The notes beneath the pieces were generated by a model, which was not told the origin of the DNA, did not search any database, and saw only the letters and a program-made list of their open reading frames with translations. From Escherichia phage JS10, in sequence record EU863409: DNA of 64,000 nt; one strand, 5' to 3'. Positions 59,522 to 64,000 of this stretch are shown here, one piece after another (position 1 is the first letter of the stretch; each line of letters starts with the position of its first letter). The translations under genes and the position numbers were made by a program.

Positions 59522-59527
59522 CAAAAA

Positions 59528-59547
59528 AGGAGAGCTTACGCTCTCCT
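59528..59547. terminator. bidirectional hairpin terminator after gene 54
   Basis: AGGAGAGC-ttac-GCTCTCCT with A-run upstream and T-rich downstream; between convergent genes. Confidence 0.65.
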
Positions 59548-59555
59548 TTAGGGGT

Positions 59556-59846
59556 TTATTTACGGAACGAAATGAAACCTGCTGCGGTCATTAATGGCTG
59601 CTTTTTAACAAAGACCGTGATAGAAATAGGAGCTTCAGATTCAAGCTGACCGGTTACTACACCATTAAAGATATTTTCAGTTTGTTCAGGTTGTGAAAAA
59701 TTTTCAACCGGGCGTAAGTCGAACTGTTTGTCTTCGCCGAAAACTCGGCGTAATTCATTACCGACTGCACTGTCGAACTCTTCAGAAGCAGGGATAACGT
59801 TTTCAACTACCAGTTCTTGACCGTTAAAGCGGAATGTAGATTTCAT
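59556..59846 (-). CDS. hypothetical protein
   Basis: 96-aa ORF downstream of alt, with early-type promoter GTTTAC-N18-TACTAT at 59875-59904. Confidence 0.5.
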   Translation of the reverse strand: MKSTFRFNGQELVVENVIPASEEFDSAVGNELRRVFGEDKQFDLRPVENFSQPEQTENIFNGVVTGQLESEAPISITVFVKKQPLMTAAGFISFRK

Positions 59847-59874: not shown

Positions 59875-59904
59875 ATAGTACCACATCCTTGTGGTGTTGT
59901 AAAC
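59875..59904 (-). promoter_or_regulatory. early-type promoter GTTTAC-N18-TACTAT
   Basis: Minus-strand hexamers with CCACA-nnnn-TGTGG hairpin in the spacer. Confidence 0.4.
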
Positions 59905-62027
59905 TACATTTTGAATTTATTTGGTAAAGAAGAGATGTCCAAAGATGCAGCAAGGATTTCCATAGCCTCATTACTTTCTGAAACAGATTCTGAAACTAGG
60001 AATTCTTTAAACCCATTCATCAATTTAACTTCACCGGTTTCCATCAGATGGTCGCCATCGTAAACGGACTCACTGAGTTCTGAAGGAGATGTCACTGTAG
60101 CTTCCATAAGGTATTTGTGAGATACTCTATCATTCATAGCAAAAGCCGCTACTTTATCAACCTTCAACAATAATCCGCGCGGAAGGATAATTTCTGCTTC
60201 TTCAGAATATTCCGTAAGGTCACCAGGAGCGATAACTTTAACTGCTTCAGCACCTCGAATAACCATACCGATTTCAGCAATCCTGTCTGCAGGGCCTTCA
60301 GGTGCAATTGGATTACCGAACTCATCTTCTTCCCATTCTACCTCTTCATCATCAACTTCACCTACGTCAGATGAACTACCACTAGCCAATTTAAACAACT
60401 CATCGGCGGAGGATAAAGAACCTTCATCACCAACAAAAACTGCTTGGTTGTCGAGGGCCATATAATTTTTACCAAATTCGCCAAAGATGTTAGGCTTTAA
60501 TGAAGCGGACACAAAGTTCTTAAAGTAAAATGTTTTGTTATCAATATTATGGCGTAGAATTTTGTATGGTAAATCCTGGCCACGATACAAAATAGTACCC
60601 TTAGGAAGTTTAATACCCTTAGTAAATGCTGAGTCTAAATCCTTAATCAATTTAATAGCTGTTGTATTGTTTTCGGATTCAGGTTTACCTAAAAGGAATA
60701 AGTTCATAGGAGCATATTCAGCTGCACAATATTCGATAATGGCATTACTTTCGTCTTTTGTCAAGCCCTTAGGTTTAATGAGCTCGCCTGAATAAGCATA
60801 CGCATCGCCAATAGAATCGTTAATTAGTTTATAAACGGCTTCCATAGCGAAAGCAATTCGGGATGCTTTCTCTGAAGGAGACCCCTGAAAACGGGCACTC
60901 AGGTTATTAACAATTCTCTTAATAATATCCAGACTATTGGTAGTATTGATTTGAGAAAGGCCGCTTAAAAGTCTATCGACTTCCGTATTAAAAAACGCCA
61001 TATTATTAGAGTAAATTTCAAACCCTTGTTTATCTCTATTAGCATAATTTAGTTTAAATTTACTATCAGTCATTAAAGCGTGCGTGAGAGCAATGGTGTA
61101 TCTAAAGTTGGCAAGGTCCTCACTCTTAGATTTAAACTGAGAGGCCTGTCGCATTTTAGTAATAGCACCTTTTTTAAAGTTCTGGCTAATCTGCTCAATA
61201 CCTTCGTTCTCAGGGCCTTCGGCCGAGTGAACAGGTACAGAAACTTCAAACTCGTTATAAACCTGCAATTCTTTAGGTGATAAAGTTTCAGGTTCGGCAG
61301 TAGAATACTGCGCTGCTGCAGCCATACGACGGGAAATTTTAGTACGAGAGATAACGGCCTTATCGGTACGTTTCTCTTCAACCTGTGCAATAGATGCCGC
61401 TACGGCTTCGACCTTACTTACGGCCTGTCCGGTTTTCTTAGAAACATAAACTTCACCGACTTTAGACTCAACCTTGGTATAAAGGTCCGCATCAATTTCA
61501 GGCATACCCTTGATATCTTCAATATTAGTGCCACGACGTGCTAAAAGAACGTATGTATGTTTACCACTAAACTGGAACATATCATCAACAACTTTAAACT
61601 TACCACCAGTACGAGCCATAGCCAAACGAGCTAATACACGCTGAACAGTAGGACCCTTACCTTTCATTTTCTTGGTAGGGAAACGGAACAAAACTGCATC
61701 CATTTTAAGTTTACTTACTTGTTCGTATATCGTATCGAAAATAGTATTCAATGCACCAAGAGGGTCAGAACCAAGGCCACCTTTGAGTTCAGCTGGAGCA
61801 CCCTTGCTCGACAAACTCATTAAAATAACATGAACGTATTTGTCGCCAGGCTTAACCATTTTAATAGCGTCTCCTTGAGACGCATAAGATACCATACGAG
61901 CAACAAGATTATCATTACCCGGTGCTTTAATAGAGAAAATCTGTGGGATACCGGAGCCCGGCTTAAGATTTGTTACTGGATAGTTTTTAGCGGAATCACT
62001 ATCAAAAACTTCGTTTAAATTTTCCAT
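59904..62027 (-). CDS. alt: Alt-like ADP-ribosyltransferase (head-packaged), copy 1
   Basis: 707 aa; ART-type triad in order: LYRGQ, FVSASL (S-x-S), EAEIILPRG; position after gene 54 as T4 alt. Confidence 0.85.
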   Translation of the reverse strand: MENLNEVFDSDSAKNYPVTNLKPGSGIPQIFSIKAPGNDNLVARMVSYASQGDAIKMVKPGDKYVHVILMSLSSKGAPAELKGGLGSDPLGALNTIFDTIYEQVSKLKMDAVLFRFPTKKMKGKGPTVQRVLARLAMARTGGKFKVVDDMFQFSGKHTYVLLARRGTNIEDIKGMPEIDADLYTKVESKVGEVYVSKKTGQAVSKVEAVAASIAQVEEKRTDKAVISRTKISRRMAAAAQYSTAEPETLSPKELQVYNEFEVSVPVHSAEGPENEGIEQISQNFKKGAITKMRQASQFKSKSEDLANFRYTIALTHALMTDSKFKLNYANRDKQGFEIYSNNMAFFNTEVDRLLSGLSQINTTNSLDIIKRIVNNLSARFQGSPSEKASRIAFAMEAVYKLINDSIGDAYAYSGELIKPKGLTKDESNAIIEYCAAEYAPMNLFLLGKPESENNTTAIKLIKDLDSAFTKGIKLPKGTILYRGQDLPYKILRHNIDNKTFYFKNFVSASLKPNIFGEFGKNYMALDNQAVFVGDEGSLSSADELFKLASGSSSDVGEVDDEEVEWEEDEFGNPIAPEGPADRIAEIGMVIRGAEAVKVIAPGDLTEYSEEAEIILPRGLLLKVDKVAAFAMNDRVSHKYLMEATVTSPSELSESVYDGDHLMETGEVKLMNGFKEFLVSESVSESNEAMEILAASLDISSLPNKFKM

Positions 62028-62030
62028 TAT

Positions 62031-64000
62031 TTACCCTTGGATGAATTTTTCTGGTATGTCATAGAGGTCTATGCATGAAGCCAAAAGAGGCAGTACGTCA
62101 AACCGTGTAGATTTAACAAATGAATCAAAAGATACAGGGCTTTCGGAAGTATCGAAGTCATCTTGGTATACGACCAACTCACCGGTTTCCATTAGTACGT
62201 CACCATCATACACTACAGATTCTTGAAGCTCATCCGTCGTCATAACTTCGGCTTGAACGAGTTTTGTATTACTAGATGTCGTTCCGTCATTATTAGAGGC
62301 ATCAGTTATTTTATTAACTTTGACCATCAATCCGCGTGGTAGAATAACTTCAGCTTCTGTTGCTATTCCAAGACTTCCTGGATATACCGCATTAACTTTA
62401 TGGGCTCCATCAATTGCCCATCCTATTTGAACTTTAACGTAATCAGGGTTTTCTTTATACGCTCTTATTTCATTAGGATTAATGGTTATTCCTTCTTCAT
62501 TTTTATCGACTGTCAATTCGTTGCGAACTTCCGGTTCTAAAAGACCAACCCCGGCATGTGTAACACCAAAACGTCCAAAAATGATAGGAGTCAGTGAAGT
62601 AGATACAAAATTTCTAAAATAAAATACCTTATTTTTAACTAGTGCTTCGTATATAGGAGCGGTCATACTCTGTGCACGATAAACTGTAATGCCTTCTGGT
62701 ATACGGTCACCATTTTCAAAAGCTGAATCAAGATTATTAACAGCAGATTCAATAGACCTTTCATTCATTACATCATAGTTCTGAGGATTATAACGTCCTA
62801 AAAGAAGATTATTGATGTCGGTATAACCTGAGCCGCAGTATTCTCTGATGCCGCGCTTTTGTGATGGGGTGTATTTAGAACCATCACGAGCGATAGTAAT
62901 ATCGACCATAATACCACCACCTACACCGGCAAAACTATAAATGCGTTTTTTAATGAACTTGGTCTTGGCCGCTTTCCACTTGGACTCGGTTAATTCATTC
63001 CAGACGTCGTCAGGTTGACCTTTACGAGTTTTGTTATGCATAGCCAGCCATTCGCCTTTATATTCTTCAAAAACCGTATTAATAACAGAGGCATATTTTT
63101 CTAGAGCTTTAACAGATGTCAAAGGTTCGTTTTTGATGGCTGTAAGAATTTTATCTTTAATTTTCTCTTGGATTTCACCTATACCGTGAAGAGGAAACAT
63201 TTTATATTCGTAATGCAATTCTTCAGCAGTGCCTTCAGCTACTATATTAGCAACTTTATTTTTAGCCGCAGGAGAATTGTTATTAGTGACCATTTCCTGT
63301 GCCTCAGGGATTAATGGAGCTGTTGCAGGTTTATTAAAATCTGCTGCAGTAGCTTCATATTTCTTAAACAGTTCACTTTCATTACGATAAGATTCTAAAG
63401 ACTGACTTGCTGCAATAGCGCGACGAGAAATCTTAGTCTTGGTTATAACCATTTTATCAGTGCGACGTTCTTCAACTTTAGCAATACTGCCGGCAATAGC
63501 AGTTTCTTTAGTAACCTGCACACCTTCTTTTTTAGAAATATAAACTTCACCAACATCAGAATCTACCTTAGTATACAATTCGGCATTAATTCCTGGCATA
63601 CCTTTGATATCTTCAATATCAGCTTGTTTACGAACTACTAGGATATAAGTATGTTTACCGGTAAATTGGTACATAGCCGGAACTACTTTGAAGCGTCCAC
63701 CAGTTTTTTGAGTTACCAGACGTTGGATAATCCGTTGGACAATAGGCCCTTGCCCTTTCATTTTCTTGGTTGGAAAACGGAACATCACAGCATCCATACG
63801 AAGCTTTTTAACTTGTTCGAATACTACGTCGAAAATGGTATTAATAGCATCAATAGGAGTAGGGCCTAAGCCGCCTTTAAGTTCGGCTGGAGAACCTTTA
63901 GCCGAAAGGCTCATAAGGATAACGTGGGCGTATTTATCACCTAATTTAACCTGTTTAATAGCATCGCCTTCAGAGGCATAAGATACCATACGAGCAACTA
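62031..64000 (-). CDS. Alt-like ADP-ribosyltransferase, copy 2 (5-prime end beyond window)
   Basis: Paralog of copy 1 (VYRAQ, FVSTSL, EAEVILPRG); frame stays open upstream of the track Met to the window edge (VAR-MVSYASEGD aligns with copy 1). Confidence 0.85.
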   Translation of the reverse strand, partial: VARMVSYASEGDAIKQVKLGDKYAHVILMSLSAKGSPAELKGGLGPTPIDAINTIFDVVFEQVKKLRMDAVMFRFPTKKMKGQGPIVQRIIQRLVTQKTGGRFKVVPAMYQFTGKHTYILVVRKQADIEDIKGMPGINAELYTKVDSDVGEVYISKKEGVQVTKETAIAGSIAKVEERRTDKMVITKTKISRRAIAASQSLESYRNESELFKKYEATAADFNKPATAPLIPEAQEMVTNNNSPAAKNKVANIVAEGTAEELHYEYKMFPLHGIGEIQEKIKDKILTAIKNEPLTSVKALEKYASVINTVFEEYKGEWLAMHNKTRKGQPDDVWNELTESKWKAAKTKFIKKRIYSFAGVGGGIMVDITIARDGSKYTPSQKRGIREYCGSGYTDINNLLLGRYNPQNYDVMNERSIESAVNNLDSAFENGDRIPEGITVYRAQSMTAPIYEALVKNKVFYFRNFVSTSLTPIIFGRFGVTHAGVGLLEPEVRNELTVDKNEEGITINPNEIRAYKENPDYVKVQIGWAIDGAHKVNAVYPGSLGIATEAEVILPRGLMVKVNKITDASNNDGTTSSNTKLVQAEVMTTDELQESVVYDGDVLMETGELVVYQDDFDTSESPVSFDSFVKSTRFDVLPLLASCIDLYDIPEKFIQG

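Follow-up and report, generated by a model that had tools for sequence, protein, structure and literature searches.

Two Alt-family genes at one locus

Whether two adjacent ADP-ribosyltransferase (ART) genes supply a phage with the same enzyme twice, or with two enzymes that modify different host proteins, is the question raised by one end of a 64,000-nucleotide stretch of Escherichia phage JS10 DNA (sequence record EU863409; hereafter the window). Both genes resemble alt of phage T4, the product of which (gpAlt, NP_049811) is a packaged and injected NAD+:arginine mono-ADP-ribosyltransferase, and they share with it the locus, the architecture, the catalytic motifs and the L-x-E sites; T4 differs in possessing one such gene and the remnants alt.-1 and alt.-2 instead of two full-length genes. 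The downstream gene is here called altB and the upstream gene, which is cut by the end of the window, altA. Very probably, both are intact members of the Alt family, altA being the orthologue of T4 alt and altB belonging to a type that T4 has lost. The explanation that we consider best overall, and probable, is that this phage carries two complete packaged ART paralogs, a T4-like altA and an altB with other substrates.

The window belongs to Dhakavirus, the T4-type coliphages of the JS98/JS10/IME08 group, with megablast identities of 97.7% to Esco_phi_B-01, 96.3% to NC-G and 92.6% to IME08. A first-pass annotation had described two adjacent minus-strand genes, the second running past the window, and both open reading frames (ORFs) were recovered where it placed them; that of altA stays open to the last full codon at the window edge (VARMVSY... 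at 63998). Full-length altA comprises 694 amino acids in the close relative NC-G, so about 39 of its codons lie beyond the window end. The altB product matches the deposited JS10 protein 'Alt RNA polymerase ADP-ribosylase' at 100% identity. The arrangement itself is already known and will not surprise a specialist: it is annotated in the public IME08, JS98 and JS10 genomes, which have the same genes in the same order and spacing with nothing substantive different, and Dhakavirus genomes that are 92-98% identical to the window at the DNA level label the pair altb/alta or as two 'Alt-like' genes. Duplications of alt were also listed for RB49, 44RR and T4 by Nolan et al. 2006 (PMC1524935). What is new here are small additions, namely the reading of alt.-1 and alt.-2 as B-type remnants, the retention of the two protease motifs in altA and altB alike, and a mosaic of carrier and effector segments.

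Catalytic domains and selection

The two products are paralogous. BLASTP aligns their N-terminal modules with 69% identity over 196 amino acids (E 9e-93), in agreement with the conserved module reported at first pass, and their ART regions with 34% identity (E 2e-38). Bit scores against PF03496 (ADPrib_exo_Tox) are 64.7 for altB and 123.4 for altA, compared with a curated cut-off of 23.4, and of the 674 positions of the Alt-like family PHROG 802, altB covers 2-674 and the truncated altA 45-674. According to precomputed Pfam assignments, PF26846 and PF03496 occur together in 120 of 120 listed homologues.

The ART motifs YR(G/A)Q, FVS(A/T)SL and EAE(I/V)ILPRG, already recognized in the first-pass annotation, are present in both proteins; those of altB are YRGQ (R482), FVSASL (S507/S509) and EAEIILPRG (E610/E612). 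Alignment with T4 Alt, ModA and ModB, which the annotation had proposed as a check, places the R, S-x-S and E-x-E residues of both copies in register with those of the three T4 enzymes. Among 79 aligned homologues S507, E610 and E612 never vary and 78 have R482, the sole exception being a frameshift-like entry for RB69. In ARTs of the R-S-E class an E-x-E motif predicts an arginine acceptor, and on the basis of this motif altA and altB are both predicted to be arginine-specific. ModA and ModB share the ART core fold and the R, S and E-x-E residues, and differ in consisting of the core only (about 200 amino acids), with no N-terminal domain, helical region or C-terminal propeptide; they are made early and are unpackaged. 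Only the ART core of the window proteins aligns with them, at 13-21% identity.

The RB69 Alt entry (AY303349) and a Mosigvirus relative share 92% identity outside about 55 residues (approximately 472-525), which are apparently out of frame in RB69, with removal of the catalytic R and of S-T-S. Either a sequencing error or an inactivated laboratory-strain allele would account for this stretch.

Neither gene of the window has the disrupted catalytic triad that the annotation had named as evidence against two effectors: the triads of altA and altB are intact, and both genes appear to be under purifying selection (the 5' end of altA lies outside the window). In comparisons with three Dhakavirus orthologues, at synonymous divergences (dS) of 0.15-0.48, the ratio of nonsynonymous to synonymous substitution rates (dN/dS) is 0.04-0.06 for altB and 0.04-0.07 for altA, values that indicate strong purifying selection on both and decay of neither. 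Loss of one copy has precedent, since T4 has lost the B-type (alt.-1 and alt.-2) and the RB69 entry is frameshift-like over its catalytic R and S-T-S; with both window ORFs intact, their motifs complete and dN/dS at 0.04-0.07, however, it is extremely improbable that either gene is a decaying duplicate heading for loss as in T4.

Domain architecture

altA and altB both consist of four parts, namely an alpha/beta domain at the N-terminus (about 240 amino acids), a helical middle, an R-S-E ART domain and a tail at the C-terminus. In an AlphaFold model of altB, computed from an alignment of 79 homologues (mean predicted local distance difference test score, pLDDT, 79.9; predicted template modelling score, pTM, 0.72), the alpha/beta domain extends to about residue 230 and is followed by an all-helical region at 250-420, the ART domain at 424-650 and then C-terminal helices. 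Foldseek matches the modelled ART domain with probability 1.0 to Vis, Certhrax, C3 (C3bot), VIP2, iota Ia and CDTa. The target TM-scores are 0.6-0.7 for Vis and C3, which are single-domain chains, and about 0.3 for Certhrax, VIP2, iota and CDTa, whose chains are longer; the C3, VIP2, iota and Vis toxins have only the fold in common with the altB model, at 12-18% identity. No solved Alt structure was found by phmmer among the sequences of the PDB, where altB had no matches and altA only weak matches to iota and CDTa over about 70 residues.

Divergence between altA and altB

The first-pass annotation had described a stretch of roughly 70 residues between the S-x-S and E-x-E motifs as the part in which the two proteins differ. 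Its estimate of that stretch was fair (69 residues of altB are unalignable, compared with about 48 of altA), but it understated the divergence, as the 180-residue central regions (241-420 of altB) are also essentially unrelated, with 11% identity. S-x-S and E-x-E are separated by 100 residues in altB, by 79 in altA and by 68 in T4 Alt. The 69-residue stretch of altB, in which there are 20 D/E and 3 K/R, includes a 48-residue insert that the alignments show to be missing from altA, T4 Alt and the B-type enzyme of Tequatrovirus KRT47; in the AlphaFold model block mean pLDDT is 46-59 for residues 551-580 and falls below 50 at 553-562 and 573-577. The residues ahead of the first catalytic glutamate are DLTEYSE in altB and SLGIAT in altA, and the ART regions as a whole are 39% identical. 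The predicted mature proteins have masses of 71.1 kDa (altB) and 69.4 kDa (altA), with isoelectric points (pI) of 5.96 for altB and 8.87 for altA; that of T4 Alt is 8.41. T4 Alt differs from altB as well, altB having an unrelated helical region, a 48-residue acidic insert and an acidic pI.

Because the helical regions are unrelated, the residues preceding the catalytic glutamate differ, altB has an acidic insert and the net charges are opposite, we lean towards the view that altA and altB would differ in substrates. The alternative is that the copies are redundant, acting on the same host targets (Arg265 of the RNA polymerase alpha subunit and other T4 Alt substrates), with the duplication providing dose or robustness. 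Both copies are indeed of the same E-x-E catalytic type, they share predicted packaging signals and an operon, and one copy suffices for T4; but identities of only 39% in the ART domain and 11% in the central region, the different residues before the glutamate (DLTEYSE, SLGIAT), the mature pI values of 5.96 and 8.87, and the fact that purifying selection maintains the two types as separate lineages in two genera, which would be unexpected for a simple dosage duplicate, make redundancy unlikely.

Orthology of the A-type and B-type enzymes

ART-domain identities separate two types: 62-85% among A-type proteins, 56% between B-type proteins and 35-43% between an A-type and a B-type. The ART domain of altA is 62% identical to that of T4 Alt and 85% identical to that of the Alt of Tequatrovirus KRT47. 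The KRT47 locus reads ligase, alt.1, a T4-like alt, a second ART annotated as 'distinct from T4 Alt', alt.-3 and gene 54. This second ART (gp193) occupies the position of altB and is its orthologue, with 45% identity in the central region, 56% in the ART domain and the same KFKM C-terminus; it differs from altB in having no acidic insert and in its T4-Alt-like N-terminal domain, which is 46% identical to that of Dhakavirus altB across genera, compared with 68% within a genome.

According to the T4 annotation, alt.-1 and alt.-2 come from an old duplication of the initial part of alt. Together, however, they align almost residue for residue with the N-terminus of KRT47 gp193, and this near-identity indicates that they are remnants of a lost altB-type gene rather than simply a partial duplicate of alt. 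When the central and ART parts of altB served as a tblastn query, about 457 phage records gave near-full-length matches, about 40 of them at 95% identity or more; in a sampled listing, identity falls from at least 95% to about 50%, and many Tequatrovirus phages appear with two places per genome each. These comparisons indicate that altB is an old paralog common to two genera (Dhakavirus and many Tequatrovirus) that is mostly lost from T4.

The Dhakavirus phages MX01 and AnYang have a third, distinct ART type between altA and altB. The ART region of this third type in MX01 is 35-47% identical to both other types. The N-terminal 240 residues encoded by the middle alt gene of MX01 are about 90% identical to those of altB, yet dS between them is 1.9, which is saturated.

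Transcription of the locus

The simplest reading of the locus, inferred from its layout, is one late transcript for altA, altB and alt.-3, the small gene downstream of altB. The altB ATG lies 3 nucleotides past the altA stop, and the T4 late-promoter consensus TATAAATA was not found between 59.5 and 64 kb, so altB has no late promoter of its own. Upstream of altA, T4 has a terminator followed by TATAAATA, and NC-G has the same terminator followed by CATAAATA. The alt transcription unit likely ends at a terminator-like hairpin between alt.-3 and the convergent gene 54 (Table 1). Scans of the region for sigma-70-type promoters and for terminators gave no enrichment over shuffled sequences, and a search of the region with a T4-early-type promoter pattern was uninformative.

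Probable packaging, processing and injection

About 40 copies of T4 Alt are present in the prohead core, from which the protein is injected with the DNA (PMC9958956, PMC9026906). The T4 prohead protease gp21 cuts Alt at ITE-6 and LTE-619, removing 6 and 63 residues, to yield a product of 68.2 kDa by mass spectrometry (PMC5694885); the mass that we computed for residues 7-619 is also 68.2 kDa. altB has L-x-E at both T4 cleavage positions, LNE-6 (propeptide MENLNE; 62010-62018) and LSE-653 (60069-60077), and altA has it at the aligned positions, LNE-7 (read from NC-G) and LQE (ELQES, 62217-62231). At the C-terminal cleavage column all 79 of the 79 homologues conform to [LIVM]-x-E at the level of the motif. 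The predicted C-terminal propeptide contains a further motif, YDGDxLMETGE, which is invariant in 8 aligned Alt proteins and mostly kept, with variants, in distant homologues. YDGDxLMETGE holds a second L-x-E (LME), which in altB could be a further protease site.

By analogy with T4 Alt, it is likely that altA and altB are both packaged, trimmed at both ends and injected. In the proposed sequence of events, a single late transcript would yield the two proteins, which would enter the prohead core via their common N-terminal module; the prohead protease would trim both ends to give mature proteins of about 69 kDa (altA) and 71 kDa (altB); and, after injection with the DNA, both would use NAD+ to ADP-ribosylate arginines of host proteins, altA resembling T4 Alt in its action on RNA polymerase alpha and other proteins and altB acting on a different substrate set. 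From the sequences we infer, with good support, two injected ARTs with different targets, which the first-pass annotation had suggested as a possibility.

altB might instead be unpackaged, acting in the late-infected cell in the manner of ModA and ModB but later, or it might be a structural component of the core with an irrelevant ART domain. Its acidic insert and acidic pI, unlike those of T4 Alt, would fit such a role. Nevertheless, altB keeps a full N-terminal domain (65-69% identical to that of altA) together with the two protease motifs, the window contains no separate promoter for it, it is translationally adjacent to altA, and purifying selection has conserved its catalytic residues; we regard both versions of this alternative as highly unlikely.

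Several points weigh against two packaged ARTs with different targets. Only for T4 Alt is it documented that the protein occurs in the virion, is injected and modifies RNA polymerase alpha at Arg265 (PMC9958956, PMC5512222), and the virion content, cleavage, injection, activity and substrates of the Dhakavirus Alt proteins are all extrapolated from it. The localisation of Alt in the core has been called 'mysterious' in a review (PMC9958956), and even in T4 the packaging role of the N-terminal domain is a presumed one. The difference in targets is drawn from sequence divergence alone, and the two enzymes could overlap on RNA polymerase. Finally, the start and promoter of altA lie outside the window, and the NC-G sequence CATAAATA is a one-mismatch variant of the T4 late consensus. 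The searchable literature yielded nothing specific on virion proteomics of the JS98 group or on a second Alt, and no functional study of a B-type enzyme.

Mosaic evolution of putative carrier and effector segments

Different parts of these genes have different histories in the five genomes compared. The N-terminal 240 residues cluster by genus: A-type and B-type proteins of one genome are 65-68% identical in this part and cross-genus pairs 42-46%, with T4 Alt only 42-46% identical to the window proteins. The central and ART parts cluster by paralog type, not by genus. Recent gene conversion was considered as the source of the N-terminal likeness within genomes and was ruled out by the saturation of synonymous sites in altA-altB comparisons (dS 1.3-1.8; 1.9 for the MX01 pair).

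Comparison in sliding windows of nucleotide sequence locates sharp mosaic breakpoints near codons 240 and 600-630. T4 alt and KRT47 altA are 94-100% identical over codons 1-240, 42-76% over 241-600 and 87-94% from 603 onwards; NC-G altA and KRT47 altA are 36-63% identical in the N-terminal part and 80-98% over codons 393-632, where dS is 0.51 as against about 2. The mosaic pattern of KRT47 altA points to a recent exchange of ART cores between genera. Effector cores have evidently moved between genera, and the gene ends stay with the phage lineage. This pattern fits, and does not prove, a function of the ends in incorporation of the protein into the head of its own phage.

The N-terminal domain is always N-terminal in 70 representative homologues drawn from 1.8 billion proteins. 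When the ten most atypical of the 70 were scanned against Pfam, five carried PF03496 above the cut-off and four had no recognizable C-terminal domain. A Foldseek search of viral protein models (BFVD) found the N-terminal fold in large uncharacterized proteins of unrelated phages, some of them named zeta toxin, deaminase or ParB/Srx; these hits are only a suggestive lead to fusions of the N-terminal domain with non-ART effectors.

A broader reading, to which we give tentative and limited credence, is that the Alt locus would be an effector cassette system, in which a genus-specific carrier of about 240 residues, together with the terminal propeptides, loads the head and the cores are swapped by recombination, altB then targeting a host protein other than RNA polymerase. 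If so, no fewer than three ART types would belong to the system, perhaps joined by non-ART domains in distant phages with the same fold, and the altB target might be, for example, a defence or stress-response protein. The same logic of a conserved virion part joined to variable injected effectors is found in the T4 internal proteins IPI-III, with their capsid targeting sequence, and in MuF-fused and polyvalent effectors (PMC9026906, PMC5512222). Whereas those systems share a peptide of 10 residues or a MuF domain, the Alt proteins share a folded domain of 240 residues, and the effectors of Alt are all ARTs. Homology of the Alt N-terminal domain to the IPI-III, MuF or polyvalent systems was looked for and not found.

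Alt is the textbook example of an injected enzyme that reprogrammes the host, known from T4 with its single copy; most relatives in the two genera hold a second type, and some a third. The function of the B-type is unstudied because the model phage, T4, lost it. ADP-ribosyltransferases of phages and hosts are central to work on defence and counter-defence, so identification of the B-type substrates would be a cheap and well-defined experiment, and the mosaic of carrier and effector segments is also of interest in practice, where foreign proteins are to be loaded into T4-type heads.

Genome context and neighbouring genes

The position of the Alt locus is conserved, between baseplate gene 54 with alt.-3 on one side and alt.1 with DNA ligase (gene 30) on the other. 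Homologues of T4 gp29, gp48 and gp54 (PHROGs 1283, 230 and 45) occupy the plus strand at 55.7-59.5 kb, and minus-strand alt.-3, altB and altA converge on them. The order gp29, gp48, gp54, alt.-3, altB, altA of the window continues to alt.1 and ligase in IME08, NC-G, T4 and KRT47. Coordinates of the features are collected in Table 1.

Table 1. Positions of the altA/altB features in the window and of related genes in other phages (the latter in coordinates of their own loci)
Feature	Position	Strand	Evidence and remarks
altB, Alt-like ADP-ribosyltransferase of 707 amino acids, complete, B-type	59904-62027	-	ORF list; PF03496 E 9e-18; PHROG 802 E 1e-250
altB N-terminal alpha/beta domain, residues 1-240, presumed head-incorporation module	61308-62027	-	69% identical to altA; model pLDDT 87.5
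altB central all-helical region, residues 241-420	60768-61307	-	model helices 251-417; 11% identical to altA, 45% to KRT47 B-type
altB ART domain, residues 421-653	60069-60767	-	R482 60582-60584; S507-A-S509 60501-60509; E610-A-E612 60192-60200
altB acidic insert, residues 535-582, specific to Dhakavirus altB, predicted largely disordered	60282-60425	-	alignments; model pLDDT
altB predicted C-terminal propeptide, residues 654-707	59907-60068	-	aligns with 63-residue T4 Alt C-terminal propeptide
altA, very probable T4 Alt orthologue, 5' part outside window	62031->64000 (listed ORF 62031-63989)	-	PF03496 E 9.5e-36; PHROG 802 E 3e-243
altA catalytic motifs	62331-62681	-	YRAQ 62670-62681; FVSTSL 62592-62609; EAEVILPRG 62331-62357
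alt.-3 homologue, 96 amino acids, DUF5498, last gene of alt unit	59556-59846	-	PF17602 E 4e-34; synteny with T4 alt.-3
Intrinsic-terminator-like hairpin between alt.-3 and convergent gene 54	59526-59549	-	10-bp stem and T run
T4 alt.-2 and alt.-1	locus L003 5066-5451		
KRT47 gp193	locus L006 3239-5296		
KRT47 altA, mosaic gene	locus L006 1142-3235		T4-like ends, Dhakavirus-like codons 393-632
MX01 middle alt, third type	locus L002 7532-9577		

Mutants of T4 with a C-terminal extension of Alt.-3 evade the mRNA-ADP-ribosylating defence CmdTAC by blocking degradation of CmdA (PMC11618068). In the 57-nucleotide gap between altB and alt.-3, a sigma-70-like site (TTTACA, 17 nucleotides, TACTAT, with an upstream TG) lies at 59875-59903 on the minus strand and could give alt.-3 an early or middle promoter of its own; the overall scan, as noted above, was unenriched relative to shuffles. 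Over the whole window TATAAATA occurs 19 times, against 8.1 expected, a count reached by none of 100 shuffles; the copies lie mostly on the plus strand at 27-50 kb, which fits a block of late structural genes.

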